Positions 21,257-58,329 of a stretch of DNA of 64,000 nucleotides are shown here, piece by piece. Made by a program: the position numbers and the translations under genes. Each line of letters opens with the position of its first letter. The first letter of the stretch is position 1. The DNA is taken from contig JAVZZP010000001.1 in NCBI GenBank assembly GCA_038885615.1, positions 198,646 to 262,645 of the forward strand. The letters are read 5' to 3'. Under the pieces are notes generated by a model. The model saw only the letters and a list, made by a program, of their open reading frames with translations, was not told where the DNA came from and ran no database searches. Source of the DNA: Candidatus Pacearchaeota archaeon (GTDB taxonomy: Archaea > Nanobdellota > Nanobdellia > Pacearchaeales > GW2011-AR1).

Positions 21257-21259
21257 AAG

Positions 21260-23759: not shown

Positions 23760-23819
23760 AGATTTAATAATTTTGATAAATATATAAAGGTTTTTAAAAT
23801 AAAATTTTTAATATTTTAT

Positions 23820-25270: not shown

Positions 25271-26355
25271 TCGTCGGGGCAGGTCCATCTGGTTGCGTTA
25301 TGGCTGAAAGACTTGCGTCTATAAGAAAAAAGATTTTAATGATAGATAAACGAGACCATATCGGTGGAAATTGTTATGATTATTATGACGATTTTGGTGT
25401 TTTGGTTCATAAATATGGACCACATTATTTCAGGGCAAAAGATAAAGTAGTAATAGATTATTTATCTAATTTTACAGAGTGGATAGAACAGAGATATAAA
25501 GTAGCTGTTTGTATAAAAGGAAAAGTTTATTCTTTTCCTATAAATAAAAAAACAATTGAACAGTTTTTTAATGTAAAACTAAAGGATGAAGAAGAAGTTA
25601 AGAGGTTTTTAGAAGAAAGAAGGCAAAAGGAAATTATAGAACCAAAAAATGCAGAAGAACAAGTTTTATCTCTCGTAGGAAAAGAAATTTACGAAGGGTT
25701 TTTTAAAGGTTATACAAAAAAACAATGGGGAATAGAACCAAAGTTTTTAGATAAAGAAGTTACTGCTAGAATCCCAATAAGGTATAATGAAAATGACGAT
25801 TATATAATAGAAGGTTTTCAAGCAATGCCAAAAGAAGGTTACACAAAAATGTTTGAAAAAATGATTTCCAATAAGAATATTAAACTTATCTTAAGTAAAA
25901 CTTATGAAAATAATTTATCAAAAATAGCAAAAAAAATTATATGGACTGGCCCAATAGATGAATATTTTAATTATAAATTTGGAAATTTACCATATAGAAG
26001 CTTAAAATTTATTTTCGCTTCTTTTAGAAAAGAGTATGTTCAAGAGATCGGACAAATAAACTATCCTGAAGAAGATATTCCCTATACAAGAATAGTAGAG
26101 ATAAAGCATGTAACTAAACAATCATGCCCAAATACCACCATATCTATTGAATTTCCTGAAGAAAGGGGCGAACCTTATTATCCAATGCCGACAAAAGAAG
26201 CAAAAGATTTATACAAAAAATACGAAGAGCTTGCAAAAAAAGAGAAAAATGTTTATTTTTTAGGAAGATTAGCAAAATATAAATACTTAAATATGGACCA
26301 GTGTATAGAGGAGGCACTAAACTTATTTGAGGAGATAAAAAATGAAACCCTCTAA
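25249..26355 (+). CDS. glf: UDP-galactopyranose mutase
   Basis: YDFLIVGAGPSGCVMAERLA (FAD-binding), IDKRDHIGGNCY and VLVHKYGPHYF motifs. Confidence 0.9.
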   Translation: MEKYDFLIVGAGPSGCVMAERLASIRKKILMIDKRDHIGGNCYDYYDDFGVLVHKYGPHYFRAKDKVVIDYLSNFTEWIEQRYKVAVCIKGKVYSFPINKKTIEQFFNVKLKDEEEVKRFLEERRQKEIIEPKNAEEQVLSLVGKEIYEGFFKGYTKKQWGIEPKFLDKEVTARIPIRYNENDDYIIEGFQAMPKEGYTKMFEKMISNKNIKLILSKTYENNLSKIAKKIIWTGPIDEYFNYKFGNLPYRSLKFIFASFRKEYVQEIGQINYPEEDIPYTRIVEIKHVTKQSCPNTTISIEFPEERGEPYYPMPTKEAKDLYKKYEELAKKEKNVYFLGRLAKYKYLNMDQCIEEALNLFEEIKNETL

Positions 26356-27229
26356 AATAAAAATATTAATTGTAGGTCATAAAGATTTTCCGTTTATAAA
26401 AGACGAGATCTATCAACCTATACAGGCAGGGAGAAGTATTTCAAAAATAAAATTACCAAAACCGTGGATAGGAGATGATACTGGAGAGAACATTTCTCAG
26501 AAAAATAGAGAATACTGTGAATTAACGGCGATGTATTGGGCCTGGAAAAATTACAAAAAAATAGGAAATCCGGATTATATAGGATTATGTCATTATAGAA
26601 GGTATTTTGCCCTAAAACCTAGAATCAATAAAAAGAATCAAATTTATTCTATTATTTATTTTTACGGAAAAAAAATTTCTGATAAGTTAAACTTGTTTTT
26701 TTTAATAAGAAAAATATATAGATACTTTTTAAAAAAAAGTATTTCTGAAGAAGAACAAAAGAAAAATTTTTCAGAATTTGAAAAAAATCACCTTGGTGAA
26801 ATAAATAAAATAAAAAAAATAATAGAGGATTATGATATTATTCTTCCAATAAGATATGAAGTTCCAAATCCTCCTATCAAAAATCATTACAATAAGTATG
26901 GAAAGGTGCATGAAGAAGATTTAAAAAAACTTGAATTTATTATAAAGAAATATTTTCCTAAAGAAAAAAAATACTTATCTATTGTACTGAAATCAAAAAG
27001 CGCATATTTTTGTAATCTTTTTATTATGAAAAAAGAAGTTTTTTGCAGATATTCAAAATGGCTATTTGAGATATTAGCAAAAGTTGAAGATTTATTAGAC
27101 CTAGAAAAAAGGGAAGGATATGATAGGCGAGCTATCGGTCTATTGGGTGAGATTCTTTTAAATGTTTGGATAGAAAAAAACAAAAAAAAATATAAAATAA
27201 AAGAAATGCCCGTAATATCTTTTAATTAA
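26342..27229 (+). CDS. DUF4422-family protein (putative galactofuranosyl transferase)
   Basis: MYWAWKNY and YIGLCHYRRYF motifs; immediately downstream of glf. Confidence 0.45.
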   Translation: MKPSKIKILIVGHKDFPFIKDEIYQPIQAGRSISKIKLPKPWIGDDTGENISQKNREYCELTAMYWAWKNYKKIGNPDYIGLCHYRRYFALKPRINKKNQIYSIIYFYGKKISDKLNLFFLIRKIYRYFLKKSISEEEQKKNFSEFEKNHLGEINKIKKIIEDYDIILPIRYEVPNPPIKNHYNKYGKVHEEDLKKLEFIIKKYFPKEKKYLSIVLKSKSAYFCNLFIMKKEVFCRYSKWLFEILAKVEDLLDLEKREGYDRRAIGLLGEILLNVWIEKNKKKYKIKEMPVISFN

Positions 27230-27232
27230 AAA

Positions 27233-28165
27233 ATGACTCGTCTCCTCAATTTCCTTCGGCAAAGACCAGAACTTTACGAAGAGCTTAGAAGAATTTATGG
27301 AAAAACAATTGGTTTTTGGTGGTTGAAAACTCTTTATCTAAAAAAAGTTGGACTTTGGAATGGAGAAAGAAGAATTAAAATCCTGGATGATAAAGAGGCA
27401 AATAAAATAATTATTGAAAAACTTAAATCAAAAGAACCTTTTATGGTTTGCCGTTATGGAAGCACGGAGTTTAGAAATCTCTTCAATGATGAACTTGAGA
27501 ATTTATGCTTTTATTCAGGTTTTTTTCCAAATGACAAAAAACTTCTTCCAAAATTTAGAAGGGTTTATTTTGAAGCATCAAAACAGATTGACTATCTTTG
27601 TGTTTGGAACTATCTAAATCATTTTAATTGGAAAAGAAAATGGATAAGAAATTTTCCGAATATAAAAGCTTTTTTTAGTTTGGGTGTTTTGAGTCATTTA
27701 GAGCCTTGGGTTAAGGCGTTGGAAGGAAAAAAAGTTCTTGTGATTCATCCTTTTGAAGAAACAATAAAAAAACAATATAAAAAGATGGGCAAACTCAAAA
27801 TTCTTCCGAAATTAAAGAAACTTGAAATAATAAAAGCAGTTCAGACTATTGCAGGAGAAAAAGACGAAAGGTTTAAAGACTGGTTTGAAGCTTTAGATTA
27901 TATGAAAAAAGAAATTGACAAAAAAGATTTCGATGTGGCTTTAATAGGTTGTGGTGCTTATGGTTTGCCTCTTGCCGCTTATGTCAAGCAAAGAGGAAAG
28001 CAAGGGATACATGTTGGCGGAGCGCTACAATACTTTTTTGGTATAAAAGCTAAAGCAATAGAAAATAAAGAAAAAGAAATGAGAATAAATAAATATTGGA
28101 CTAAACCGACTGAAGAGGAAAAACCAAAGAATTATAAAAAAATCGAAAATGGGAGGTACTGGTAA
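27233..28165 (+). CDS. GT-D type (DUF1792) glycosyltransferase
   Basis: PFMVCRYGSTEF (RxGDGE-like) and ALIGCGAYGLPLAAYVK motifs. Confidence 0.45.
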   Translation: MTRLLNFLRQRPELYEELRRIYGKTIGFWWLKTLYLKKVGLWNGERRIKILDDKEANKIIIEKLKSKEPFMVCRYGSTEFRNLFNDELENLCFYSGFFPNDKKLLPKFRRVYFEASKQIDYLCVWNYLNHFNWKRKWIRNFPNIKAFFSLGVLSHLEPWVKALEGKKVLVIHPFEETIKKQYKKMGKLKILPKLKKLEIIKAVQTIAGEKDERFKDWFEALDYMKKEIDKKDFDVALIGCGAYGLPLAAYVKQRGKQGIHVGGALQYFFGIKAKAIENKEKEMRINKYWTKPTEEEKPKNYKKIENGRYW

Positions 28166-28689
28166 TGAGAAACAGATATATTGAGATATGGAAAGAAATA
28201 AACAAAGACAAGAAGCCAATCAAAATAATTGATATTGGAGGAAGAAATGAAGAGCTCTTAAAATTTAAACCGAAAGATATTTTGTGCAAATATAAAAATT
28301 TTGATATTAAAAAGGGAGAAGATATAGAAAAAAAAATTAAGGAAAAAGAAAAATTTGATATTATAATTTTCTCACATGTAATAGAACATTTAACAGATAA
28401 AAAAACGGCCCTTATTAATATAAGAAAAATGATGCATAAAAAATCAAGATTGATTTTATTAACACCTAACTCTCTTTCTTGGAGAAGAATAATTTTTTAT
28501 ATATTTAATAAAAGAATGGAGAGTTATGGAGGTTATGAAACACATCTTTGTTGCTTTAATATAGAAGTTTTAAAAAATCTCTTAGAGAGATTTTCATTTA
28601 AAATAGAAAAAATTAAATTTTATGACTTCTTTTTACCTTTTAATTTAGGTAAGTTTTCAGAGGAAATAATGGTTGTTTGTAAAAAATGA
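28165..28689 (+). CDS. class I SAM-dependent methyltransferase (Methyltransf_11/23-like)
   Basis: IIDIGGRNEE ... IIFSHVIEHL ... LILLTPN. Confidence 0.55.
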   Translation: MRNRYIEIWKEINKDKKPIKIIDIGGRNEELLKFKPKDILCKYKNFDIKKGEDIEKKIKEKEKFDIIIFSHVIEHLTDKKTALINIRKMMHKKSRLILLTPNSLSWRRIIFYIFNKRMESYGGYETHLCCFNIEVLKNLLERFSFKIEKIKFYDFFLPFNLGKFSEEIMVVCKK

Positions 28690-29582
28690 AAAACCCAAAA
28701 CACTTTAAACTAACAACACCTGTCCTTTTCCTAATTTTTAATAGACTAGAAACTACAAAAAAAGTTTTTGGTGAAATTAGAAAGGCAAAACCGACAAAAC
28801 TTTATATAGCAGCAGACGGGCCAAGAAACGAGGAAGAAAAAAAGAAAACAGACGCTGTCAGAAAATATGTTTTAAGCCATATTGATTGGCCGTGTAAAGT
28901 GAAAACTTTATTTAGAGAGAAAAATTTGGGATGTAGAATAGCTTCTAATAAAGCAATAAGCTGGGTATTAAATTTAGAAGATAGATGTATGGTTTTGGAA
29001 GATGATACTATCCCTAGTAAGACCTATTTTAGATTTATGCAAGAGATACTTGAATACTATAAAAATAATGAGAAGATAATGAGTGTGGGAGGAGTTAATT
29101 TCTTAAAAAGAGTAAATATAAGTGAGAGCTACTTTTTTTCTAAAGTTCACACTAGCGGTACTGGAATATGGAGAAGATCTTGGCAGAAACAAGATTTAGA
29201 TGTAAAGAGATATTTAGAAATAGAAAAAAGTAATGAATTGTATAAGTATATTCCTAATATTATTGAAAGAGTGTTATGGAAAAAAAGAGTAAAGGATATG
29301 CTATCAAGAAAAGTAGACTCTTGGGGCTATGCTTTTCAGATAGCACATTTTATAAATAGAGGTCTTTGTGTTATTCCAAAAGTGAATCTAATAAAAAACA
29401 TAGGGTTCGATGAAGAAGCAACCCATACAAGATTTAATAAAATAGATAAAAAGTATATTTCTCTTCCTAAATTTGAATTGAAATTTCCATTGGTACACCC
29501 AAAAAAAATTGAAATAAATAAAGAATTAGAGAAAAAACTACTGATTCTTGAGATAAAAAGAATTCTTTTAAAAAGATTATAA
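28686..29582 (+). CDS. nucleotide-diphospho-sugar transferase (GT-A/GT2-like)
   Basis: N-terminus PVLFLIFNRLETT...LYIAADGPR is typical of GT-A enzymes. Confidence 0.45.
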   Translation: MKNPKHFKLTTPVLFLIFNRLETTKKVFGEIRKAKPTKLYIAADGPRNEEEKKKTDAVRKYVLSHIDWPCKVKTLFREKNLGCRIASNKAISWVLNLEDRCMVLEDDTIPSKTYFRFMQEILEYYKNNEKIMSVGGVNFLKRVNISESYFFSKVHTSGTGIWRRSWQKQDLDVKRYLEIEKSNELYKYIPNIIERVLWKKRVKDMLSRKVDSWGYAFQIAHFINRGLCVIPKVNLIKNIGFDEEATHTRFNKIDKKYISLPKFELKFPLVHPKKIEINKELEKKLLILEIKRILLKRL

Positions 29583-29583
29583 G

Positions 29584-30540
29584 ATGATAAAGCAATATCC
29601 TAAAATTTTTTGTAAAAAGATAAGAGTAAAATTAAAAGAAATGTTTTATCGGCCTAAAGCATACATTTTTATAATCCATAGGGTAGAAGAAATAAATAAA
29701 GAAGGCATAAAAATAAACGAAATTCTAAAAATTTCTCCTAAGAGTTTAGAGGAATTTATAATTTTATGTAGGAAGAAAAAATATAATTTTATTAGTATTG
29801 AAAGATTTATTAAAATGTTCAAAAAAAAAGAATTAACTGGAAAAGAGATTATATTGACAATTGATGACGGCTATAAAGATGTTTTTGAAAGAGGGTTATC
29901 AATTCTTGAAAAATATAAAATCCCTTTTGTATTTTATCTGAGCACTTCTTTTTTAGAAAGAAGATTTTTTTATTGGTGGTATTTATTAGAAGAGATTATT
30001 TTAAAAAATGAGGAGGTCATATTTAAAAATAAGAAATACAAATGTAAAAGTCTAAAAGAAAAAAATGCTCTTTTTAAAAAAATTAGGAGAAAGATTGCTT
30101 TCTTAAAAGATGAAGAAGAATTAAAAGACCTGTTCTCTAATTACGAATTGAAGGTTAAAAAGGATTATTATAATTCTCTTTTTCTACAGTGGAAAGAGAT
30201 TAGAGAAAAATTAAAAAACCCCTTAATAACTATCGGGAATCACGGGGATGGCCATTTCTTTTTCAATTCTAAAGAAGAGGAGGAAATAGAAAAGGATATA
30301 ATAAAAGCACAAAATTTAATAAAAAAAAATCTTAATATAAAAACAAAACATTTTTCTTATCCTTATGGGGATATAATCTCTATTTCAAAAAAACATTCGG
30401 AAATAATAAAAAGATTAGGATTTGTTAGTGGAGTTACGACGGAAAATAGACCTGTTAATTACAAAGATGATCTACTTTATCTGCCTAGGATTAATTTAAG
30501 CGAATTTAATTATAAGAAAATTATAAGAAAATTAAAATGA
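29584..30540 (+). CDS. polysaccharide deacetylase (CE4/NodB-like)
   Basis: ILTIDDGYKDV and GNHGDGH motifs. Confidence 0.7.
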   Translation: MIKQYPKIFCKKIRVKLKEMFYRPKAYIFIIHRVEEINKEGIKINEILKISPKSLEEFIILCRKKKYNFISIERFIKMFKKKELTGKEIILTIDDGYKDVFERGLSILEKYKIPFVFYLSTSFLERRFFYWWYLLEEIILKNEEVIFKNKKYKCKSLKEKNALFKKIRRKIAFLKDEEELKDLFSNYELKVKKDYYNSLFLQWKEIREKLKNPLITIGNHGDGHFFFNSKEEEEIEKDIIKAQNLIKKNLNIKTKHFSYPYGDIISISKKHSEIIKRLGFVSGVTTENRPVNYKDDLLYLPRINLSEFNYKKIIRKLK

Positions 30541-31364
30541 AAAAACCATTAATATCCGTTATCATTCCCGTGTATAATAGCAAAAAGTTCTTAAGAAAGT
30601 GCTTAAATTCTATAATTAATCAAACCTTAAAAAATATAGAAATAATTTGTATAAATGACAATTCAAATGATTCTTCCTTAAAGATTTTAAAAGATTATCA
30701 AAAAAAAGACCGAAGAATAAAAGTATTTAATCAAAAAATGAATAGAGGACAGGGTTTTTGTAGGAATCTTGGATTAAGAATAGCTAAAGGAGAGTATATT
30801 TCATTTATAGATTCAGATGACTGGATAAATAAAACATATTTAGAAAGATTATACAAAACTGCAAAGAAAAAAAATGCAGAAGTTGTAATTTGCTCTATGT
30901 TTAATGAGAAAACAAACAAATATTACTACTTCTTTAAAGAAAAAAAGGTTTATTATAATATAAAAGAAAAAATAAAGATTTCTCAAATAGAAAAAAGAGG
31001 ATCTGTATGTAATGTCTTATTTTCAAAAAAACTTCTCAAAAAGAATCATCTTTTTTTTGAAGAAGGTGTTTTTTATGAAGATATTCTTTTTATGTTAAAG
31101 GCAGTATATTTTTGTAATAAAATAGTGACTGTTCCAAAAGCAACCTATTACTATAGGTATAACCCTTCCTCAACAATTAATACTTTAAACGAGAAAAAAA
31201 TAGAGGACCTTTATAATGCTAGAAAAAAAATGAAAGAATTTTCTAAAAGATATAAATTTAGATTAATTTTTAGAATTCACGGAAGTATTCCTGTTCCTTT
31301 TTTTATCTTAAAGTTATTTACTTTACTGAGACTAATGTACTTAAAACATAAATTTAAAAATTAA
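30537..31364 (+). CDS. GT2 family glycosyltransferase
   Basis: ISVIIPVYNSKKFLRKCLNSIINQT, NDNSNDSS and DSDDW motifs. Confidence 0.8.
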   Translation: MKKPLISVIIPVYNSKKFLRKCLNSIINQTLKNIEIICINDNSNDSSLKILKDYQKKDRRIKVFNQKMNRGQGFCRNLGLRIAKGEYISFIDSDDWINKTYLERLYKTAKKKNAEVVICSMFNEKTNKYYYFFKEKKVYYNIKEKIKISQIEKRGSVCNVLFSKKLLKKNHLFFEEGVFYEDILFMLKAVYFCNKIVTVPKATYYYRYNPSSTINTLNEKKIEDLYNARKKMKEFSKRYKFRLIFRIHGSIPVPFFILKLFTLLRLMYLKHKFKN

Positions 31365-38302: not shown

Positions 38303-38340
38303 TAAAAAAGAAAATTAAATTAGTTTTTAAGTGTTTTGAA

Positions 38341-38411
38341 TGCGCGGGCCGGGATTCGAACCCGGGTCACAAGCTTGGAAGGCTAGTATTCTGCCACTGA
38401 ACTACCCACGC
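38341..38411 (-). tRNA. tRNA-Gly (anticodon UCC)
   Basis: Reverse complement GCGUGGGUAGUUCAGUGGCAGAAUACUAGCCUUCCAAGCUUGUGACCCGGGUUCGAAUCCCGGCCCGCGCA folds as a cloverleaf; anticodon loop CUUCCAA. One U-U mismatch in the anticodon stem. Confidence 0.8.
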
Positions 38412-38498
38412 ATATTTTTTATTTATAAAATTAAGTTTTAAACCTTGCGTTTGCATAAAAGATAAGTTTTTATAGGATAAATTTTAAAAAAAATTAAC

Positions 38499-38630
38499 GA
38501 GGGGATGCCGGAGTGGCCAAACGGGCAGGACTTAAGAAGCTCTCTTTAAAAAGAGACCTTGGAGAGAAACCAAGGAAATTAAGATATCCTGTGGCTTTTG
38601 CCTGCGGGGGTTCGAATCCTCCTCCCCTCA
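38499..38630 (+). tRNA. tRNA-Leu (anticodon UAA), class II, with 49-nt intron at the canonical 37/38 position (about 38537-38585)
   Basis: Acceptor GAGGGGA/UCCCCUC, 3-bp D-stem, anticodon arm CAGGA-CUUAAG[intron]A-UCCUG, long variable arm UGGCUUUUGCCUGC, T-arm GGGGG-UUCGAAU-CCUCC, discriminator A. The intron contains the hairpin ccttgg-agagaaa-ccaagg. Confidence 0.8.
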
Positions 38631-46253: not shown

Positions 46254-46952
46254 CTATATCTCTCTTAGTCTTAAAAGAGTAGAAAGTGGGACTAATTTTT
46301 TAAAATCGGGAGATATTTTCAATTTTACTTGCTTGTTATTTTGCTTAATTTTAAAAAGTGGAACTCCTTTAAGTAGCAATTTATTCGTATAATCTCTTAT
46401 TGAAGACTCTGTAAGGTTTAAATGATTTGCTAAAACGCGATAAGTTATGTCTTCTAAACCCTGATCCTCTAAAGAATATATTGTAGAAAAAAGCAGCATC
46501 TCTCTATTAGTTAATGACTTAAATTTAACTCTTATCTCTTTCTTAATGCTATCCAATGAATCTAGGAGATCTTGGGCCTTTTTTAATTCATCTATTGATG
46601 ACTTTTTAATATCAGGACTTATAAAAAAATGTCCAAATGAGGAATTTATGTCTGTCTGTTGGTTTGTCTGTCTGTCTGTTGGTTTGTCTGTTGTAACCCC
46701 CTTATTTCCTGTGGAAATATCGAAATTTTGGCTTTTTAACCCCTTTATTTCCTGTGGAAGTGCTGTGAAATCTGTTGGATTATCTGCTGTTATTTGATTT
46801 TCTGTCGTACTTTTTCCTTCTATCTGCTGTTTTTTTTGTGGGGCCTCTTTTTGCTCTAATTCATAAATCTTTTCATTTAATCTCTTAATCTCTTCTTTTA
46901 AAAATGAAATTTCTTCTTTAACTTTAATAAATGCCTCTTTTACAGGATCCAT
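46254..46952 (-). CDS. coiled-coil plus winged-helix DNA-binding protein, paralog of 45580-46194, with a repetitive linker
   Basis: C-terminal MLLFSTIYSLEDQGLEDITYRVLANHLNLTESSIRDYTNKLL. The coding region has internal nucleotide repeats (gtctgttggtttgtctgtct x2; aaccccttatttcctgtggaa x2). Confidence 0.5.
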   Translation of the reverse strand: MDPVKEAFIKVKEEISFLKEEIKRLNEKIYELEQKEAPQKKQQIEGKSTTENQITADNPTDFTALPQEIKGLKSQNFDISTGNKGVTTDKPTDRQTNQQTDINSSFGHFFISPDIKKSSIDELKKAQDLLDSLDSIKKEIRVKFKSLTNREMLLFSTIYSLEDQGLEDITYRVLANHLNLTESSIRDYTNKLLLKGVPLFKIKQNNKQVKLKISPDFKKLVPLSTLLRLREI

Positions 46953-47313: not shown

Positions 47314-49863
47314 ATGGAAGAAATAGAATTTGCTAAAAAAGAAGAAGATAATAAAATAAACGAAATGCTAGATGAAACTCTAAAAAAATGGTTTTTTTCT
47401 AAGTTTGAAAAGTACTCTGAAACACAAAAATACTCCATACCTGAAATAAAAGCTAAGAATAATATTTTGATTGCTGCTCCTACGGGAGGTACAAAAACAT
47501 TGAGTTCTTTTTTGGCAATATTTGATAGGTTAATAAGATTAATAAAAACAAATTCTTTAGAAGAAAAAATTTATGCAGTTTATTGCTCCCCTCTAAAAGC
47601 ACTTTCAAATGATGTATACTTTAATATAATAACCCCTATTGAAGAAATTAACAATCTTTTGAAAAATGATGGCTTTGAAAAAACAATAAGGGTTGGTCTA
47701 AGAACAGGAGATAGCAGCCAGAAAGAAAGAGAAAAACATAAAAAAGAAATACCGCATATCCTAATAACTACTCCTGAAAGTCTAGCGATTCTTCTTAATA
47801 CTTCGCTAAAAGAGTCATTAAAGTTTATAGAGTATGTTATAATAGATGAAGTTCATTCTTTGGCCGAAAACAAAAGAGGAGTTCATTTATCCTTAACATT
47901 AGAAAGATTAGAAGAAATCTCTCAAAAAAGCTTTGTTAGGATAGGACTTTCTGCTACAGTTGCACCTTTAGAAGAAATAGCAAAATATTTAGTTGGTAAA
48001 GGGAGGAGTTGTAAAATAGCTGATGTGTACATACCTAAAAAGTTTAGTATTGAAATAATAAATAGTTTGAAAGATATTGATACAAATAATAAACTTCTAG
48101 AAAAAATTAATGAAATAGTTGAAAAACAAAGAACAACTCTTATTTTTACAAATACTAGAGCAGCTACTGAAAGAATAATAAAGAACTTAAAAGAGAAATT
48201 TCCAACAAAATATTTGGATAATATTGGTGCACATCACTCTTCCTTATCAAAAGAAGAAAGAAAAATTGTAGAAGAAAAGCTAAGGAATGGGAAATTAAAA
48301 GTTGTAGTTTCTTCAACGTCTCTTGAATTAGGTATAGACATAGGATTTATTGATTTGGTAATATTATTAGGCAGTCCAAAATCTGTTTCAAGGGCTTTAC
48401 AAAGGATAGGAAGAGCAGGGCATAAGTTACATGAAACAGCTAAAGGTGTTTTTGTGATAAGTGATTATGATGATCTTGTAGAATGTTCTGTAATAAAAAA
48501 GAACTCTTTGGAAAAAAAGATAGATAAAGTCCATATACCAAAAAACTGCTTAGATGTTCTTTCTCAACATATAGTTGGAATGGTTTTAAACAAAGATTAT
48601 AATCTGAATGATTTATTTGAAATAATAAAAAAAAGTTATTGCTATAAAGAATTAACAAGAGAAGAATTTTTGTCAGTTATATCTTATTTAGCTGGAGAAT
48701 ATTCTCTTAAAATAAAAAATTTTTATCCTAAACTGTACTATGACAAGGAAAAGAATATTGTTAAAAAAAGAGGAAAATTGCTTAAAGTTATATATTTAAC
48801 AAACATAGGAACAATACCTGATGAAAGTTACTTGAATGTTTTAACAAAAGAAAAAAAAGAAATCGGAAAAATAGATGAAATTTTTTTTGATTCTTTAAGA
48901 AAAGGCGATGTTTTTTCTTTAGGTGGCAAACCATATACTTTTCTTTATGAAAAAGGAATGAATGTGTATGTTGCTCCTTCTGAAAGAAGCCCAAACATTC
49001 CACACTGGTATTCTGAAATGCTCCCTTTATCCTTTACAACTGCGGAATCTATCCAAAATTTCAGAAAATTATTAAAAGAGAAAATAGAAAAAGAATTACC
49101 AAAAAAAGAAATAATTGACTTTATAAAATCATATCTTTATTCCAATGAAGAAAATGCTGAAGAAATTTACAACTATTTTATAAAACAAAAAAAAGTATCT
49201 CATATACCAAATGAAAAAGAAATTTTAATAGAAAATTATACAGGAGAAAAAAACTTTTTTTTATTTCACTGCGTTTTTGGAAGAAGAATAAACGACGCAT
49301 TCTCTAGATTGTTATCCTATCTTTTAGCTATGGAAAGAAAAAAAGATGTAGAAATTGGAGTAAATGATAATGGATTTTATTTAGCTGGAGAAGACCTAAA
49401 TTTTCAATTGATAGATAGAACAGTGAATAAAATAAGAAAAGACAATATAAGAGAATTACTTGAAAAATCCTTGGAAAAAACAGAAATTTTGAAAAGAAGA
49501 TTTAGGCATTGCGCTACTAGAGGACTAATGATCTTAAGAAATTATAAAGGAAAAAGAAAGAGTGTTGGAAAACAAAAAATGTCTTCAAAAATAATGTTAG
49601 GTGTTATTTCCAAATTAACAAAAAACTTTCCTTTGCTAAAGGAAGCAAAACGAGAAATATTAGAAGATGTAATGGACATAAAAAATCTAGAAAGAATTAT
49701 AGAAAAAATAGAAAGAAAAGAAATAGTTTTTATTAAGAAAAAAACCATTATACCTAGTCCTTTTGCTATCAATCTTGTTTTTCAAAGTCATCAAGATTAT
49801 TTAAGAATAGAGGATAAAATAAAATTTTTAAAAAGAATGCATGAGATCTATGAAAAACTATAA
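47314..49863 (+). CDS. lhr: Lhr-core type DEAD/DEAH-box helicase
   Basis: Motif I AAPTGGTKT, motif II IIDEVH, SAT region; the 849-aa length and C-terminal domains are typical of Lhr-core. Confidence 0.8.
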   Translation: MEEIEFAKKEEDNKINEMLDETLKKWFFSKFEKYSETQKYSIPEIKAKNNILIAAPTGGTKTLSSFLAIFDRLIRLIKTNSLEEKIYAVYCSPLKALSNDVYFNIITPIEEINNLLKNDGFEKTIRVGLRTGDSSQKEREKHKKEIPHILITTPESLAILLNTSLKESLKFIEYVIIDEVHSLAENKRGVHLSLTLERLEEISQKSFVRIGLSATVAPLEEIAKYLVGKGRSCKIADVYIPKKFSIEIINSLKDIDTNNKLLEKINEIVEKQRTTLIFTNTRAATERIIKNLKEKFPTKYLDNIGAHHSSLSKEERKIVEEKLRNGKLKVVVSSTSLELGIDIGFIDLVILLGSPKSVSRALQRIGRAGHKLHETAKGVFVISDYDDLVECSVIKKNSLEKKIDKVHIPKNCLDVLSQHIVGMVLNKDYNLNDLFEIIKKSYCYKELTREEFLSVISYLAGEYSLKIKNFYPKLYYDKEKNIVKKRGKLLKVIYLTNIGTIPDESYLNVLTKEKKEIGKIDEIFFDSLRKGDVFSLGGKPYTFLYEKGMNVYVAPSERSPNIPHWYSEMLPLSFTTAESIQNFRKLLKEKIEKELPKKEIIDFIKSYLYSNEENAEEIYNYFIKQKKVSHIPNEKEILIENYTGEKNFFLFHCVFGRRINDAFSRLLSYLLAMERKKDVEIGVNDNGFYLAGEDLNFQLIDRTVNKIRKDNIRELLEKSLEKTEILKRRFRHCATRGLMILRNYKGKRKSVGKQKMSSKIMLGVISKLTKNFPLLKEAKREILEDVMDIKNLERIIEKIERKEIVFIKKKTIIPSPFAINLVFQSHQDYLRIEDKIKFLKRMHEIYEKL

Positions 49864-50566
49864 CTTAATTGGGCCAACAATATATTTGAAAAAAGAAAAA
49901 GTTTTAATTATTGGAGATACTCATTGCGGATTTGAAAAAGAGCTAAGAAGAAAATTTGGCAGTTTGTATTTGGGCCAAGAAGAAAAAAGTTTAAAGTTAA
50001 TAAGAGAAATCTTAGGAAAGATAAAGATAATAAAAGAAATAATTTTTTTAGGAGATATAACTCACTCTTTTAAATACAAAAAAGATGAAGTAACAGAATT
50101 CAAAAAAATAATTGAACTTGTAAAGAAAAAAGAAGAAAAAATTAAGATAATCGTAACTAAAGGAAATCATGATTTATTCTTAAAAGAAGAGTTTTTTGAA
50201 AATAAAGCAAAAATAGTTGATTTTTATATAAAAAAAGATATTCTTTTTATTCATGGTGACAAAAAATCCTTAGAAAAAGCTAGAAAAGAGATAGAAAAAG
50301 CTAAAAAAATTTTTTTTGGTCATTTTCATCCTGCAATAGAATTAACTGATGGAATAAAAAAAGAGATGTATAAATGTTTTTTAATAGGAAAATATGATAA
50401 AAAAGAATATTTTTTATTACCGAGTTTTTTTCCTTTAATTGAAGGAAGAGACATAAGAAAAAACAATGAGATTAATCTTAGTTTAATAAACAACTTGAAT
50501 GTTTTTGTAATAGATGATGAGTTTAATGTTTATGACTTCAAAAAATTAAATAACTTAAAAAATTAA
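49841..50566 (+). CDS. Lhr-associated metallophosphoesterase (MPE-like)
   Basis: IIGDTHCG, GDITH, GNHD and GHFH motifs; the gene overlaps the lhr 3' end. Confidence 0.6.
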   Translation: MRSMKNYNLIGPTIYLKKEKVLIIGDTHCGFEKELRRKFGSLYLGQEEKSLKLIREILGKIKIIKEIIFLGDITHSFKYKKDEVTEFKKIIELVKKKEEKIKIIVTKGNHDLFLKEEFFENKAKIVDFYIKKDILFIHGDKKSLEKARKEIEKAKKIFFGHFHPAIELTDGIKKEMYKCFLIGKYDKKEYFLLPSFFPLIEGRDIRKNNEINLSLINNLNVFVIDDEFNVYDFKKLNNLKN

Positions 50567-51574: not shown

Positions 51575-51829
51575 TTAAAATAAATCTTCTTCACTTATAA
51601 CAACGAAATCACCTATTGCTATAACTGAATGATATGGAATAAAAGCTTCTTTATTGCCATTTTTTTCTATAGCTAAATTCATAGCATAAGTTGTTAGATC
51701 TCTTAAAACTAAATTTATTAGTTCTCCTGTCTTTGTTTCGAAAGTTATATCTTTAACAGTGCCTAATCTTTTTCCTTCTTTTGTAACAACTAATTTTCCT
51801 AAAAAAAATTTGTAAGGTCTTTTTTCCAT
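51575..51829 (-). CDS. PRC-barrel domain protein
   Basis: LGKLVVTKEGKRLGTVKDITFETKTGELINLVL pattern. Confidence 0.45.
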   Translation of the reverse strand: MEKRPYKFFLGKLVVTKEGKRLGTVKDITFETKTGELINLVLRDLTTYAMNLAIEKNGNKEAFIPYHSVIAIGDFVVISEEDLF

Positions 51830-51888
51830 AAGAAAAAAAGAAAAATATAGTTTTTAAATCTTTTTATGTTAAAGAAAATAAATAGAAA

Positions 51889-52067
51889 ATCTCTCTGAGA
51901 GGATAATTTCCTATGGAAAATAATGTCTGAAAAAATAATGGAAACTAAAAATATAAAATATATATTATATTATAGAAAAGTTTTTAAATAAATATTAAAA
52001 TTTTTCAAAACAAAAATCTTTTTAAATATTTTGTTTTTTTTCCATAGGAAAAAGAAGGGTGAGAGAA
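51889..52067. promoter_or_regulatory. predicted oriC: two inverted ORB-like elements flanking an AT-rich DUE, immediately upstream of orc1/cdc6
   Basis: tttcctatggaaaa at 51907-51920 and its exact reverse complement ttttccataggaaa at 52038-52051 (TTCC-N-GGAAA mini-ORB core), each extended by a gagag/G-rich element. A 117-bp AT-rich spacer lies between them. Confidence 0.6.
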
Positions 52068-52167
52068 TTTTTCATAAAAGTTCGTATAATCTCCTAAAGA
52101 AATGAGGGTATTTTACCACTATTTCGAGTAAATAAATCTTTTTATATTCATCATATTTTTTTTCTTT

Positions 52168-53382
52168 ATGGCTGTTGAACTATCAAATATATTCAATTCT
52201 GCTTTAGAAAACTCTTTGTTCTTAAACAAAAGTGTTTTACAATCTAGTTATAATCCTTCCACAATACCTCATAGAGAAAAACAAATTGAGCAAATAGCAT
52301 CTATTCTAGCCCCTTCTCTAAGAGGTGAAAAAGTTAGTAATTTATTTGTTTATGGAAAGACAGGTACTGGTAAAACTCTTTCAATTTTATATGTCAAAGA
52401 TGAACTTTTAAAAAAAGCTAAAGAAATTAATGCTAATTTAAGAATAGAATATTTGAATTGTAAATTAAGAAAAGTTTCTGACACTGAATATAGGATTTTG
52501 GCTGCTTTAATAGAAGAACTCGGAGGAAGTGTTCCTGCAACTGGTCTTCCGACTCAACAAGTTTATAACAAATTTGTAGAACTGATTGATTCAAAAAAAC
52601 AGCTAATAATTTTAATTTTGGATGAAGTTGATCAGGTTGTTAAAAGAATCTCAGATAGTTTTCTTTATAGCTTATTAAGATTAAATTCTGAATTGAGCAA
52701 GTCTCAAATTTCTTTAATAGGTATTTCTAACGATGTTACTTTTTTGGACAATATAGACCCAAGAGTTAGAAGTTCTTTGGGGGAAGAGGAAATTCTTTTT
52801 CCAACTTATAATGCTTTACAGTTGCAAGATATTCTAAGAGAGAGGTCTAAGTTAGCTTTTAAGGAAAATGTTGTTGATGACGCAGTAATTTCTAAATGTG
52901 CTGCTTTAGCTGCAAGAGAGCACGGAGATGCAAGGAGGGCTCTTGATTTATTAAGAATTGCAGGAGAGTTAGCAGAAAGAGAGGGAAAAAAGTTAATAAC
53001 TCTTGAAAATTTAGATATGGCAAATGAGAAAATAGAAAGGGACAAAATTTTAGATCTTGTTGAAAGTCAACCAATTCAATGCCAAGTCGTTTTGTATTCT
53101 ATTATAGTTTTAACAAAGCAAAAACAAAATGAGAAATCAAAAATTTTTTTTACGGGAGATGTTTATAATATTTATAGCGATCTTTGTAAAAGATTAAAAC
53201 TTGAAGTTTTAACTCAAAGAAGAGTTTCAGACATCATTGCAGATTTTGATATGTTTGGTTTAATAAATGCAGTAGTTATCTCTAAAGGTCGCCACGGAAG
53301 AACTAGAGAAATAAAGCTTTCCATACCTCAAAATATAATTGAAAAAGTAGAACAAATCTTAAAAAAAAGTTTATCTCTTTAA
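52168..53382 (+). CDS. cdc6: Orc1/Cdc6 replication initiator
   Basis: Walker A GKTGTGKT and Walker B ILDEVD, with a winged-helix C-terminus. Confidence 0.9.
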   Translation: MAVELSNIFNSALENSLFLNKSVLQSSYNPSTIPHREKQIEQIASILAPSLRGEKVSNLFVYGKTGTGKTLSILYVKDELLKKAKEINANLRIEYLNCKLRKVSDTEYRILAALIEELGGSVPATGLPTQQVYNKFVELIDSKKQLIILILDEVDQVVKRISDSFLYSLLRLNSELSKSQISLIGISNDVTFLDNIDPRVRSSLGEEEILFPTYNALQLQDILRERSKLAFKENVVDDAVISKCAALAAREHGDARRALDLLRIAGELAEREGKKLITLENLDMANEKIERDKILDLVESQPIQCQVVLYSIIVLTKQKQNEKSKIFFTGDVYNIYSDLCKRLKLEVLTQRRVSDIIADFDMFGLINAVVISKGRHGRTREIKLSIPQNIIEKVEQILKKSLSL

Positions 53383-53387
53383 TTTTT

Positions 53388-54902
53388 ATGGCAAACGGGA
53401 ACGAATTATTGAAGTTTTGTATTCAGAATAGCATAGTTTTTGATAAAGATTTATTTGAAAATCTTAACAAACTAAACAAAGAACTGGCGATAAAAATAAT
53501 TTTTTCTTTTTCTAAATTAGGAAAAAAAGGATTAATTTCAAAGAAAATTTTTTTAGATTCATACTACGAGATAAAAAGTTTTTTTAGTGAAGAGGAATTT
53601 ATTTTTGTCAAAAATTTTTTTATTTCATTAGGTTTTAAGGAGCAACAAATAAAAAAAAATATAGAAGAGAAAAAAATTTTAGATGATTTTAGAATAATTT
53701 CTTCTTTCAATTCTTCTCCGAAGAAAATTTCAGTTTCAGATTTTGTTGATATGTTTAATTATAGGTATAATTTTTTAAAAGATATTTTAATTAAAAAAAA
53801 CCTTGGAAATTATAAATCTCTAAGGAAAATTTCTAAGGATTCATCTAACTCAATTGTCGTAGTTTCCATTTTGAATAAGAGAATTACAAAAAATAATAAC
53901 ATTATTTTCGATGTAGAAGATTCTTCAGGTGTTGGAAAAATTGTTGTTAATTCTTTAAAAGAGGAACTTTTTGAAAAAGCAAAAAAAATTCTTTTAGATG
54001 ATGTTGTTGCATTTTCTGTTATATCAAAAGGAGATATTTTTTTTGCTAAAGAAATATTTTTTCCAGATTGCTTTTTAGAAGAGAAAAAAAAGTCGAGTAA
54101 AGAAGAAATTGTCGCATTCATTTCAGATTTGCATGTAGGTTCAACAATGTTCTTAGAAAAAAATTTTAGAAAATTTTTGGAGTGGGTAAATTCCAATGAT
54201 TCTTTTTCTTCTAAATTGAAGTATATATTTATAATTGGGGACTGTGTTGATGGTACTGCTGTTTATCCTGATCAAGAGAGGTTTTTGTTAATAAAAGATA
54301 TGTATAAACAATATGACTTTTTGGCAGATCTTTTAGAGAGTATAAGAAAAGACATAAAGATTATAGTTTGTCCTGGGCAGCATGACGCTGTCTGGGTAGG
54401 AGAACCTCAACCACAAATTCCTAAAGATTGGGCAAGAAGAATTTATGAAATGGGAAATGTTTTTCTTGTTTCTAACCCATGTCTTGTTGAAATAGGTGGC
54501 ATTTTTAAGGTTTTAATGTATCACGGGGCAGGAATGCACGGAATTATAGAGTCTATTGATGAAATAAGAACGAACTTTGGTCATAGATCGCCTGCAAGAG
54601 TGGTTAAAGAAATGTTAAGAAGAAGACTTCTCTGTCCTCCTCATGGAAGTTATGATTACATTCCTTCTTCTAAGAAAGATTATCATCTAATAGAAGAAAT
54701 TCCTGATATTGTTTGTACTGGCGACCAGCATAGACCAGAAGTTTCTTATTATAATAATATTCTTATTGTTTCTTCTTCTTGTTGGCAATCAAAAACGCCC
54801 TTCGAGGAGAAAGTGGGCCACGAACCAGATCCTTGCAAAGTGCCGTTATTTAATTTAAAAACTAGGGAAATTAAAATATTGGACTTTTCAGATGAAAAAT
54901 AA
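53388..54902 (+). CDS. polB: DNA polymerase II (PolD) small subunit DP1
   Basis: Calcineurin-like phosphoesterase C-terminal domain (DLHVGS, GDCVDG, CPGQHD). Overlaps the large-subunit gene. Confidence 0.85.
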   Translation: MANGNELLKFCIQNSIVFDKDLFENLNKLNKELAIKIIFSFSKLGKKGLISKKIFLDSYYEIKSFFSEEEFIFVKNFFISLGFKEQQIKKNIEEKKILDDFRIISSFNSSPKKISVSDFVDMFNYRYNFLKDILIKKNLGNYKSLRKISKDSSNSIVVVSILNKRITKNNNIIFDVEDSSGVGKIVVNSLKEELFEKAKKILLDDVVAFSVISKGDIFFAKEIFFPDCFLEEKKKSSKEEIVAFISDLHVGSTMFLEKNFRKFLEWVNSNDSFSSKLKYIFIIGDCVDGTAVYPDQERFLLIKDMYKQYDFLADLLESIRKDIKIIVCPGQHDAVWVGEPQPQIPKDWARRIYEMGNVFLVSNPCLVEIGGIFKVLMYHGAGMHGIIESIDEIRTNFGHRSPARVVKEMLRRRLLCPPHGSYDYIPSSKKDYHLIEEIPDIVCTGDQHRPEVSYYNNILIVSSSCWQSKTPFEEKVGHEPDPCKVPLFNLKTREIKILDFSDEK

Positions 54903-57900
54903 ATCAGAAGAATACTTCAGAGTTTTGAATGAGAAAGTAAAAGAAGAGTATGAATTAGCTAAGAAAGCACGAGAAAAGGGCTTTGACAATACAAACGAGG
55001 TAGAAGTCCCTCTTGCTTCAAGCTTAGCAGAAAAAGCAGTTGGTTTAATTGCTACTATTTATCCTCAACTCAAAGATTCAAAAATTTCTAAAAGAATAAT
55101 TGAGTTAGAAGAAGAATATGGAAAACTTGATCCAGCTATTTGCTTAAAAATAGCGGAAGAAATTGCTAAAGAAAAATTTTGCAAGTTTAAGAGCTTATTA
55201 GAGGGAATTGACGCAGGCATAAGGGTTGGTTTTGCTTATATAACCTTAGGTGTTGTTTCCTCTCCAATAGAAGGTTTTACCGGTTTAAAAATTGGAAAAA
55301 GAAGGGATGGAAAAGAATATTTTATGCCTTATTTTTCTGGGCCGATAAGAAGTGCAGGGGGTACAGGGGCAGCTTTTTCTTTGATAATAATAGATTATTT
55401 AAGGGAAATATTTGGTTATGAAAAATATGATCCGAGCCAAGAGGAAATAAAAAGAGTTTTTACAGAAATTGTTGATTATCATGAAAGAATAACCAACTTG
55501 CAGTATTTTCCAACGGAGGAAGAAATTTTGTTTTTGGCAGAAAATGTTCCGTTACAAATTTGCGGCGATCCAACAGAAGAACTAGAGGTTTCAAATTTTA
55601 AAGATCTCCCGAGAATTGATACAAATAGGATAAGAGGAGGAATTTGTTTAGTTTTGGCAGAAGGGCTTGCTCAAAAAGCTGCTAAAATTTTGAGAATGGT
55701 TAAGGGATTGAGAGAGAAAGGTTTTAAATTATCTGATTGGGATTTTTTAGAGAAGTATGTTGAGATTCATAAAAAAAGAGAAAAGGGTTCAAAAGATATT
55801 ACACCTACATACATAAAAGATCTTGTTGCAGGGAGACCTATATTTGGTCATCCTTCTAGAAGTGGAGCGTTTAGATTTAGATATGGTCGTGGGAGAACTT
55901 CTGGTTTTTCAGCTACTTCTATTCATCCCGCAACGATGTTTTTAACAAACTCCTTTATTTCTAATGGAACTCAGTTGAAAATAGAAAGGCCAACAAAAGG
56001 ATGCGTTGTTACAGCATGCGATTTAATTGAAGGGCCGATTGTTAAATTAAAAAACGGCTCTGTAAAAAAAATAAGTGATGTTGAGGAAGCAAAAAAGATT
56101 TATGAAAATGTAGAAGAAATTCTTTATTTGGGAGATATTCTTTTTTCTTTAGGAGATGTTATAAATAGAAATTCTGAATTAATAAGGCCAGGGTATGTTG
56201 AAGAGTGGTGGTATTTAGAATTAAAAAGTTTTATTAAAGAAGATATCAATCCTTTTGCCGTTTCTTTAGAGGAGGCGATTTTTTATTCAGAAAAGTATAA
56301 AGTTCCTCTACATCCAAAATATATTTTTTATTGGTCTCAGGTCCAAAAAGAGATGTTTCTTAATCTTTTAGAATTAATTTCAGAAGGAACCTACAATGAA
56401 AAGTTAATATTACCTTATTCTTCTTCTTTCAAAGAGAAATTTATTTTGGGAAAAAGATGCTTGGAAATTGCAGGTATTGAACATGATGTTTTTCTAGATA
56501 ACATTATTCTAAAAGAAACAAATGCTTTTTTCATAAATTTAGGCTTAACAAAAGAGAATTTTAAGGAAAAATCAAAGGAACTTTTTCAAAAATTTTCTGA
56601 ATCAAACAAAGACGTTTTAGACTTTATTAATGATTTTTCTTTTTTTAAAATAAAGGATAAAGCAGGGGAATTTATAGGGGCTAGAATGGGAAGGCCTGAA
56701 AAAGCAAAACTGAGAAAACTTACTGGAAGCCCAAATGTTCTTTTTCCGGTTGGAGAAGAAGGTGGCAGATTTAGGAGCGTGAATGAAGCATGTAGTATAG
56801 GTTTTGTTAGCGCAGATTTTCCTCTTTTTTATTGCCCAAAATGTGAAAAAGAAGTAATATATCCTAAATGTCCTTTTTGTAATGAACAGGCAGAAAAAAG
56901 ATTTTTTTGTGAAGACTGCGGCGGAATTATTAGGAAGAAGTGTGAGCATAAAAATTGTTTTGGTTTTAAAACAAAAAAACTAAATGTAAAAGATTATTTT
57001 GATAATGCAGTTTCTTTATTAAATTTGGATAAAAACGAACTTCCCCAATTGATAAAAGGCGTAAGAGGTACTTCTAGCGAAAATCACGAAGTTGAGAATC
57101 TAGTGAAGGGCTTTTTAAGGGCGAAATATGGGCTTTGTGTAAATAAAGATGGAACGATAAGATATGACGCTACAGAAATTCCAATGACTCATTTTAAGCC
57201 CTTTGAGATAGGTATCTCTTTAGAGAAATTAAAAGAACTTGGTTATAATTATGATTCTTTCGGAAATCCTTTGGAAAAAGAAGATCAAATTGTTACACTA
57301 ATGCCACACGACATTTTATTGCCTTCTTGTCCTGTTTCGGCTGATGAAAAAGCAGATGATGTTTTTTTCAAGGTTTCTAAATTTCTTGATGAACTCTTAG
57401 AGAAACTATACGGTTTGCCACCTTTTTATAATTTAAAATCAAAAGAAGAACTTATTGGCAAACTAGTTGTTTGCATGGCACCGCATAATTGTGCAGGAGT
57501 TATTGGAAGAATAATAGGTTTTACTAAAATGCAGGGAATTGTAGCAAGTCCTTTTATGCATGCAGCGATGAGAAGAGATTGTGATGGTGATGAAGCAGCA
57601 GTTATGTTGTTATTGGATGTCTTAATTAACTTTTCATTGAAATATTTACCTTCACATCGTGGGGGAACTCAGGATGCTCCTTTAGTTTTGAATACCCACA
57701 TAAGAGAAGGAGAAGTGGATGACCAAATTTTAGACCTTGAAACTTGCTGGAATTATCCTCTAGAACTTTATCAATTGGCAGAAAACAAGAAACATTCTTC
57801 AGAAGTAAAAATCGATAATGTTAAAATTTTTTTGAAAAAAGGAATAAACTCTTTTGAAGAGATAGGTTTTACTCATGACACTTCTAACATTCATTTAGGG

Positions 57901-58329
57901 GTCTTTAATTCTTCTTATAAATATTTGCCGAATATGAAAGAAAAAGTTGAAAAACAAATGGAAGTTGTTAATAAAATAAGGGCTGTTGATGCTTCAGATG
58001 TTGCTCGTTTGATTATTGATAGGCATTTTATTAGAGATATAAGAGGAAATTTAAGAAAGTTTTCACAACAGGAATTTCGTTGTAGCACTTGCAATGAAAA
58101 ATATAGAAGGCCTCCTTTATGCGGAAAATGCTTGAAATGTGGCGGAAAAATTATTTTTACTATTTCAGAGGGTTCAATAAAAAAATATTTGGAGTTTGCT
58201 CTCAATCTGGCTAGGAATTATAACATACCTCCATACTTAAAGCAGTCTTTAGATTTAGCTAAAAAATACATAGAGGAAGTTTTTGGAAAAGAGGAAGACA
58301 AGCAAGTTGATTTGAAGAGTTGGTTTTGA
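54892..58329 (+). CDS. polC: DNA polymerase II (PolD) large subunit DP2
   Basis: GRPIFGHPSRSGAFRFRYGRGRTSG region, Zn-finger clusters (CPKCEKEVIYPKCPFC; CSTCNEKYRRPPLCGKCLKCGG). 1145 aa, no intein. Confidence 0.9.
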   Translation: MKNKSEEYFRVLNEKVKEEYELAKKAREKGFDNTNEVEVPLASSLAEKAVGLIATIYPQLKDSKISKRIIELEEEYGKLDPAICLKIAEEIAKEKFCKFKSLLEGIDAGIRVGFAYITLGVVSSPIEGFTGLKIGKRRDGKEYFMPYFSGPIRSAGGTGAAFSLIIIDYLREIFGYEKYDPSQEEIKRVFTEIVDYHERITNLQYFPTEEEILFLAENVPLQICGDPTEELEVSNFKDLPRIDTNRIRGGICLVLAEGLAQKAAKILRMVKGLREKGFKLSDWDFLEKYVEIHKKREKGSKDITPTYIKDLVAGRPIFGHPSRSGAFRFRYGRGRTSGFSATSIHPATMFLTNSFISNGTQLKIERPTKGCVVTACDLIEGPIVKLKNGSVKKISDVEEAKKIYENVEEILYLGDILFSLGDVINRNSELIRPGYVEEWWYLELKSFIKEDINPFAVSLEEAIFYSEKYKVPLHPKYIFYWSQVQKEMFLNLLELISEGTYNEKLILPYSSSFKEKFILGKRCLEIAGIEHDVFLDNIILKETNAFFINLGLTKENFKEKSKELFQKFSESNKDVLDFINDFSFFKIKDKAGEFIGARMGRPEKAKLRKLTGSPNVLFPVGEEGGRFRSVNEACSIGFVSADFPLFYCPKCEKEVIYPKCPFCNEQAEKRFFCEDCGGIIRKKCEHKNCFGFKTKKLNVKDYFDNAVSLLNLDKNELPQLIKGVRGTSSENHEVENLVKGFLRAKYGLCVNKDGTIRYDATEIPMTHFKPFEIGISLEKLKELGYNYDSFGNPLEKEDQIVTLMPHDILLPSCPVSADEKADDVFFKVSKFLDELLEKLYGLPPFYNLKSKEELIGKLVVCMAPHNCAGVIGRIIGFTKMQGIVASPFMHAAMRRDCDGDEAAVMLLLDVLINFSLKYLPSHRGGTQDAPLVLNTHIREGEVDDQILDLETCWNYPLELYQLAENKKHSSEVKIDNVKIFLKKGINSFEEIGFTHDTSNIHLGVFNSSYKYLPNMKEKVEKQMEVVNKIRAVDASDVARLIIDRHFIRDIRGNLRKFSQQEFRCSTCNEKYRRPPLCGKCLKCGGKIIFTISEGSIKKYLEFALNLARNYNIPPYLKQSLDLAKKYIEEVFGKEEDKQVDLKSWF

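Follow-up and report, generated by a model that had tools for sequence, protein, structure and literature searches.

In characterised archaeal replication origins a duplex unwinding element (DUE) lies between origin recognition boxes (ORBs) of opposite polarity, each ORB is bound by one Orc1 monomer, and MCM is loaded between them (PMC6742236; PMC12141716). At Sulfolobus oriC1 an AT-rich DUE lies between the inverted boxes ORB2 and ORB3, each of which takes one monomer with a defined polarity, and both are required in vivo (PMC12141716). In Pyrococcus abyssi and Pyrococcus furiosus, where oriC has been mapped experimentally, a single orc1/cdc6 gene lies beside the origin and is followed by the genes for both PolD subunits, inverted ORBs surround AT-rich DNA, and a second ORB cluster is found within a protein-coding gene (PMC1904270). 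The same gene order, the same inverted boxes and a second, intragenic group of ORBs occur in a 64-kb stretch of DNA from a Pacearchaeota (DPANN) archaeon (contig JAVZZP010000001.1; the whole stretch is called the window below), although here the origin is predicted from sequence. We estimate at roughly 85% the probability that the 338-bp region at 51830-52167 of this window is an oriC1-type chromosomal replication origin. The case for this reading is made by the match to the ORB, the conserved arrangement of opposed polarity and the extreme character of the spacer, and not by the inverted repeat alone. The parts of the region are the following, with scores in bits from a position weight matrix (PWM) described below.

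51830-52167, intergenic region of 338 bp between a divergent PRC-barrel gene and orc1/cdc6
51896-51920, minus strand, left box of the mini-ORB type with a perfect core TTTTCCATAGGAAA, core 14-mer at 51907-51920, 16.7 bits
51921-52037, no strand, AT-rich spacer, presumed duplex unwinding element, 117 bp, 89.7% A+T
52038-52062, plus strand, right box, a full ORB TTTTCCATAGGAAAAAGAAGGGTGA, core at 52038-52051, G-string GGGT at 52057-52060, 27.8 bits

The 14-mer TTTCCTATGGAAAA on the plus strand at 51907-51920 recurs as its exact reverse complement at 52038-52051, and the distance from the end of the right element to the orc1 ATG is 116 bp. A sequence-only reading, made earlier by a model from the letters of the window, had seen in this pair, its AT-rich spacer and its position about 100 bp upstream of orc1 an ORB-DUE-ORB origin followed by the PolD genes; the pair and its surroundings are confirmed, and the origin it proposed is supported by the ORB consensus and by the conservation, spacer and initiator results given below. 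The core TTCCATAGGAA fits the ORB/mini-ORB consensus TTCC-N5-GAA, of which TTCC and GAA are the invariant parts in Pyrococcus (e.g. TTCCAGTGGAACT; PMC1904270), the corresponding Pyrococcus core being TTCCAGTGGAA. The left box has its polarity directed away from orc1 and the right box toward it; the G-string sides of both boxes face outward, which matches the geometry of characterised origins. Both boxes had been described as mini-ORBs extended by similar GAGAG or G-rich tails. The name suits the left box, but the right box is a full ORB. Likewise, the right tail is a true ORB G-string followed by GAGAG, whereas the GAGAGG of the left tail is a direct and not an inverted copy: an inverted ORB would need it on the opposite strand, and on the ORB strand the tail reads CCTCTCAGAGAG. 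With one full ORB and one mini-ORB, the locus differs from Pyrococcus oriC, which has two 34-bp ORBs, many 13-bp mini-ORBs and two AT-rich regions. We read 51896-52062 as the predicted core origin, and the whole as a putative canonical ORB-DUE-ORB arrangement in a Pyrococcus-like oriC-cdc6-dp1-dp2 context.

For scoring, a 25-nt ORB PWM (consensus tTTCCAtAGGAAATnaAGGtGT) was trained solely on the orc1-proximal sites of relatives, and the window was scanned with a reporting threshold of 9 bits. Among 200 shuffles of the window, maximum scores averaged 12.3 bits and reached 22.2 bits at most. The right box lies above the highest shuffle maximum and the left box above the mean maximum. A third copy of the 14-mer with one mismatch, at 51822-51835, was considered as an ORB and rejected: it has no G-string, scores below 9 bits and overlaps the start of the PRC-barrel gene (ATG GAA AAA), and is best explained by coding constraint on the Met-Glu-Lys of that gene.

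Conservation was examined in 80 loci collected by Orc1 homology and in five closer loci found by exact protein look-up, and arrangements were counted in the 61 Pacearchaeota/Woesearchaeota loci with at least 750 bp upstream of orc1. A minus-strand ORB stands upstream of one or more plus-strand ORBs in 52 of the 61, with a median inner spacer of 228 bp (range 108-627). Plus-strand ORBs are found no more than 450 bp from the orc1 start in 57, and a minus-strand ORB lies at -150 to -750 in 55. Over the 80 loci, sites of at least 14 bits number 3.39 per kb within 800 bp ahead of orc1 and 0.067 per kb elsewhere, an excess of about 51-fold. Conservation of the element upstream of orc1 in relatives, which the sequence-only reading had named as a check, was thus found. 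Two plus-strand ORBs are present in 35 of the 61 loci, most often 97-99 bp apart. Where they are paired, as in loci L013, L024, L041 and L042, they lie at about -130 and -35 from orc1, and the proximal one abuts the start codon; this second plus-strand box is lost in the window and in its closest relatives. The clade as a whole can be described by the ORB consensus TTCCAyAGGAAATnnnGG(G/T)GT and by a layout of a minus-strand ORB, a TA-alternating DUE and either a single plus-strand ORB or a pair of them spaced by about 98 bp. Two or three ORBs of about 25 bp across the clade contrast with the arrays of many 13-bp mini-ORBs in Methanothermobacter, and the short GGGGT/GGTGT string, in ORBs often 97-99 bp apart, contrasts with the extended, halophile-specific G-strings of haloarchaea.

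At 78-90% Orc1 identity, relatives keep both boxes in position, although the non-coding DNA around them diverges. In these genomes the sequence of the left box is TTTCTTTTGGAAAA, TTTCTAATGGAAAT or TTTCTCGTGGAGAA, and that of the right box TTTCCAAAGGAAAATATAGGGT and similar; the right box and its G-string are both kept in L081, L083 and L085. In the wider set of relatives the left ORBs are full ORBs with the consensus TTTCCAtAaGAAAtcAaGGGGTgaG, in which the G-string part is GGGGTgaG. Since these left ORBs carry a G-string, its loss from the left box is confined to this genome and the relatives nearest to it.

Two extremes of the window fall within the spacer: over 100 nt, the highest A+T content (93%) and the lowest duplex stability (-96.5 kcal/mol by nearest-neighbour calculation). 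The spacer contains a TA-alternating core at about 51951-51974 (atataaaatatatattatattata), and the densest cluster of TA-alternating 8-mers in the window is at 51957-51967. In an unbiased count of 8-mers upstream of the orc1 genes of relatives, the highest ranks went to TA-alternating words, among them TATATTAT and ATATAATA, at about 40-fold over expectation and with occurrences in as many as 57 of 62 regions. Between the innermost ORBs of relatives such words occur at 76 per kb, against 2.7 per kb in the remaining non-coding parts of these loci (28-fold). This enrichment between the ORBs indicates that the spacer signal is not generic intergenic AT-richness.

The genes on both sides of the region, together with the presumed promoter of orc1, are listed next.

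51575-51829, minus strand, PRC-barrel gene, left boundary of the origin, Pfam PRC 1.5e-10
52113-52146, plus strand, presumed orc1 promoter region, conserved block and TATA-like element
52168-53382, plus strand, orc1/cdc6 initiator gene, 404 aa, TIGR02928 410 bits, Pfam Cdc6_C and Cdc6_lid
53388-54902, plus strand, PolD small subunit DP1, NF003118 1.2e-118, Pfam DNA_pol_E_B
54892-58329, plus strand, PolD large subunit DP2, NF003103 1309 bits (above cut-off), three PolC_DP2 Pfam domains

The orc1, DP1 and DP2 genes follow the boxes directly and consecutively on the plus strand, with strong profile matches for all three, and the start codon of orc1 is the ATG at 52168. Of the 80 related loci, 78 have DP1 after orc1 on the same strand and 74 have DP2 following, while the PRC-barrel gene is kept divergent and upstream of orc1 in most Pacearchaeota-type loci. 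The encoded Orc1 can be aligned from end to end with Sulfolobus Orc1-1 (2QBY_A, E=2.7e-107) and with Aeropyrum ORC1 (2V1U_A, E=6.7e-92), both of which are initiators crystallised on ORB DNA. Its AAA+ motifs are intact (Walker A GKTGTGKT, Walker B DEVD), and the winged-helix recognition helix TQRRVSDII and the wing KGRHGRT are conserved with respect to the crystallised homologues. By homology, then, this Orc1 is the cognate initiator, a member of the Orc1-1/Cdc6-1 clade and a close homologue of Sulfolobus Orc1-1. Like Sulfolobus oriC1, the locus thus combines an Orc1-1-type initiator with an ORB that has a dyad-like core and a G-rich tail. The DUE of Sulfolobus oriC1 contains an essential ucm motif, to which UBP binds; that of the present locus has a TA-alternating core. 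Sulfolobus further differs in the three ORBs of this origin and in its three origins and several initiator paralogues, against one orc1 in the window. A tblastn search for a second orc1 over the 64-kb window returned the self match only, and ORC1 has been reported as single-copy across Nanobdellota (bioRxiv 10.64898/2026.05.13.725050).

Immediately upstream of the initiator gene, a conserved block TTACCACTATTTCGAGTA at 52113-52130 stands just before the TATA-like element CTTTTTATA, which is about 25 nt ahead of the orc1 ATG. In the two closest relatives (L081 and L083, 88-90% Orc1 identity) this block is unchanged or almost so and lies at -55 from orc1, and a comparable TTTCGAGTA...TTTAAATA layout is found in remoter relatives. 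The segment 52113-52146 is presumed from this to be the orc1 promoter, and TTACCACTATTTCGAGTA may be a regulator site or a promoter element proximal to the transcription factor B recognition element (BRE).

The analysis shows which sequence elements the locus has and how they are oriented, that they are conserved, that the spacer is extremely unstable and which genes are present. By analogy with Sulfolobus oriC1 and Pyrococcus oriC, from which we infer Orc1 binding, MCM loading and actual firing, the origin would work as follows. Monomers of the Orc1-1-type Orc1/Cdc6, the product of the adjoining gene, would bind directionally to the right full ORB and the left mini-ORB, and the opposite polarity of the boxes would place two initiators facing each other across the 117-bp spacer. 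ATP-bound Orc1 would then recruit MCM hexamers between the boxes, and the TA-alternating core would be the first DNA to melt, followed by bidirectional replication. The genes for the initiator and for both PolD subunits lie directly downstream, in the Pyrococcus-like manner.

The PWM scan of the window reported further sites away from the predicted core origin, the best of them inside a gene 5.4 kb upstream, beyond the span of the sequence-only reading.

46694-46718, minus strand, first copy of a distal full-consensus ORB pair, 32.3 bits
46737-46761, minus strand, second copy of the distal pair, 32.2 bits
55947-55971, minus strand, PWM site inside DP2, 19.1 bits
28653-28677, plus strand, PWM site, 17.0 bits

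The distal copies are direct repeats 43 bp apart, with the polarity of the left ORB and with full G-strings. They lie within an open reading frame (ORF) at 46254-46952 on the minus strand, which encodes a 232-aa protein with an N-terminal coiled coil and a C-terminal winged helix-turn-helix (HTH) whose best match is to MarR-family regulators. In the AlphaFold model the N-terminal part is a helix and residues 40-113, which include the ORB-encoded peptide, are disordered, with a predicted local distance difference test (pLDDT) score of about 40 in the linker. The two copies are read in different frames (PQEIKGL and STGNKGV), and the ORB-encoded peptide is the sole conserved island in an otherwise unalignable PT/Q-rich linker. 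Codon choice within the ORBs is nearly fixed: Ser is TCC in 28 of 28 homologous genes against a background usage of 7%, Gly is GGG in 27 of 28 against 18%, and Asp is GAC in 24 of 24 against 22%. Different frames, fixed rare codons and an island of conservation in a disordered linker together indicate that the constraint is on the DNA itself. Among 765 homologue matches of the protein, all those with names are called "hypothetical" or bear names that are generic for HTH regulators or clearly mismatched automatic assignments. A role for it as a replication factor was considered and dropped, as its DnaD_N and HTH_36 matches are sub-threshold and its C-terminal fold is MarR-like. The distal element was also tried as an RNA gene, with no Rfam or tRNA match, and as an integrase att site; a second 233-aa ORF in L087 proved unrelated and no duplicated element was seen. 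The ORBs are followed at 46648-46693 by a GTCTGT-type tandem repeat that encodes PTDRQT repeats.

The ORB-carrying gene lies 1-8 kb from orc1 or the PolD genes in many Pacearchaeota, and over the ±7 kb covered around orc1 only about half of the relatives were seen to have the distal element, chiefly the Pacearchaeota-type loci. Three homologues that were picked only for their long contigs have ORBs of 31-33 bits, all within 6-8 kb of orc1 or the PolD genes, and in these three loci the ORB gene lies beyond a pair of genes for an Lhr helicase and a metallophosphoesterase. In the window the same pair, an Lhr-type helicase of 849 aa and a metallophosphoesterase in overlapping ORFs (47314-50566, plus strand), separates the distal ORB gene from oriC, and it is kept at this position in several relatives (L081-L084, L087-L089). 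A few kb past the ORB gene, several relatives have genes for integrases or recombinases together with series of small hypothetical genes (L083/L084 1-600, L087 17465-18301, L088 14106-15474), which suggests a variable or integration-prone region beside the origin neighbourhood.

We tentatively propose, at somewhat less than even odds, that the distal pair is a functional Orc1-binding site under DNA-level selection, carried in a MarR-like/coiled-coil gene near orc1 across Pacearchaeales. Because of its single polarity, the lack of an AT-rich partner and its place in coding DNA, it is possibly an accessory Orc1 site rather than an unwinding site. If so, the origin region would be bipartite, made up of oriC and an intragenic Orc1 anchor, analogous to Pyrococcus oriC and its dp1 cluster but evolved independently in another gene; it might couple initiator occupancy to the expression of a DNA-binding protein, or delimit the initiation zone. 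The intragenic cluster is in dp1 in Thermococcales, whereas here it is on the other side of the origin, in the MarR-like gene. Scanning with the PWM, in the window and in relatives, for a cluster of the Pyrococcus type in DP1 gave no site of at least 14 bits, and no site was conserved in DP1 or DP2. The DP2 site at 55947-55971 was rejected as an equivalent of the dp1 cluster: it is isolated, absent from the closest relatives and within the range of the shuffle maxima, and is probably due to chance.

Three other explanations of the orc1-proximal boxes were weighed. According to one of them, the boxes are an inverted repeat that arose by chance in the AT-rich DNA between two divergent promoters. 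Perfect inverted pairs of 14 nt, spaced by 20-400 bp, are indeed not rare here, with 4 in the window against 2.2 expected from Markov shuffles, and pairs with at least 4 G/C are present in 12% of shuffles; the probability of such a repeat within the 338-bp intergenic region is 1.1%, and the intergenic DNA of the genome is AT-rich throughout. As such repeats arise by chance in DNA of about 27-30% G+C, which is the composition of the window, the perfect repeat by itself is only weakly significant. Nor is the perfection noted in the sequence-only reading conserved: the closest relatives differ at 2-4 positions of the 14-mer. However, chance would leave without an explanation ORB scores far above those of shuffles, the ORB density upstream of orc1 in 80 loci, the polarity pattern in most of the 61, and a spacer that is the extreme of the whole window. 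The chance reading is effectively refuted by the PWM, conservation and spacer results, and we give it hardly any weight. Another explanation is that the boxes are Orc1 operators that autoregulate orc1, and perhaps the PRC-barrel gene, while replication starts elsewhere or is origin-free. The second plus-strand ORB of 35 relatives, about 35 nt before the orc1 ATG and overlapping the likely promoter, suggests autoregulation in those genomes. In two Thermococcus species oriC and cdc6 are 350-450 kb apart (PMC4640148), and the absence of a skew inflection at the site, described below, is in line with this explanation as well. In the window, by contrast, neither box overlaps a core promoter: about 77 nt separate the end of the right ORB from the TATA-like element of orc1 downstream of it, and the left box stands some 40 nt past the TATA-like element of the PRC gene. 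Autoregulation alone would also leave the opposed polarity around the least stable DNA and the conserved TA core unexplained, and it is compatible with an origin role, not exclusive of it. We therefore consider operators in place of an origin to be unlikely.

The remaining explanation, which we judge less probable still than that of operators, places the true initiation site at the distal ORB pair (46.69-46.76 kb) or in a broader 5-kb zone, with the orc1-proximal boxes as accessories. The distal copies are the best ORB matches in the window, at 32 bits each and with full G-strings, and they are constrained at the DNA level in 28 genomes. Nevertheless, they are direct repeats of one polarity, an inverted partner is lacking, and neither the DNA between them nor that next to them has an AT-rich stretch. 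They are within coding sequence, and they were detected within ±7 kb in only about half of the relatives; moreover, the comparable Pyrococcus dp1 cluster binds Cdc6 and is yet distinct from oriC (PMC1904270).

Several observations weigh against an origin at 51830-52167. The left box reads CCTC in the G-string register and is without a G-string, and single mini-ORBs of Pyrococcus show only weak Cdc6 binding (PMC1904270). There are just two boxes in this genome, compared to three in many relatives and many in Pyrococcus, and stronger ORBs are present 5.4 kb away. The ORB scan covers the 64-kb window, part of a contig of at least 280 kb, and further ORB clusters may exist elsewhere in the genome. 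Origins are dispensable in some archaea, for example Thermococcus kodakarensis (PMC5663688). Finally, neither GC skew, nor cumulative skew, nor third-codon-position skew taken per strand and segment has an inflection at 52 kb, where the sequence-only reading had expected one, within a 64-kb window in which skew tracks the gene strand. The cumulative-skew minimum is instead near 13-14 kb, at the strand switch into a run of 18 plus-strand genes with a glycosylation cluster.

With respect to the last of these points, the long positive run of GC skew that dominates the cumulative curve, with a rise from 14 to 32 kb, is attributable to that co-oriented gene run. Its glycosylation cluster (18506-31364, plus strand) encodes AglB/STT3, glycosyltransferases, UDP-galactopyranose mutase and a polysaccharide deacetylase, and the G+C content is low (24-27%) over about 21-34 kb. 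The PWM scan found no ORB at the 13-14 kb minimum of the window. Since skew in the window tracks gene orientation, it is uninformative on the origin over these 64 kb; archaeal skew in general has been argued in a preprint to reflect gene orientation (10.1101/2023.11.15.567178). A meta-profile of gene orientation over 36 loci showed divergence from the origin only within about 2 kb. Elsewhere in the window, an Rfam tRNA match of 132 nt (41.4 bits, 38499-38630, plus strand) that was not called by ARAGORN adjoins tRNA-Gly (38340-38412, minus strand) and is probably an intron-containing tRNA.

Our findings provide a sequence-level definition of the predicted origin for uncultivated DPANN archaea of the Pacearchaeota/Woesearchaeota type. 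Rotation to ORC1 is at present a mere convention for their genomes, and a 2026 preprint treated 208 Nanobdellota genomes in this way without mention of ORBs (bioRxiv 10.64898/2026.05.13.725050), and our literature search for ORBs together with DPANN or Woesearchaeota found no paper. The understanding of archaeal initiation is unchanged, as the layout is textbook for archaea, and the intragenic ORBs under DNA-level constraint are the only unusual element of the locus. The consensus and the layout could be used to anchor and orient metagenome-assembled genomes, to check assemblies and to interpret replication indices based on read depth. The comparison shows an Orc1-1/ORB recognition code that appears to be conserved from Sulfolobus and Pyrococcus to the DPANN archaea.

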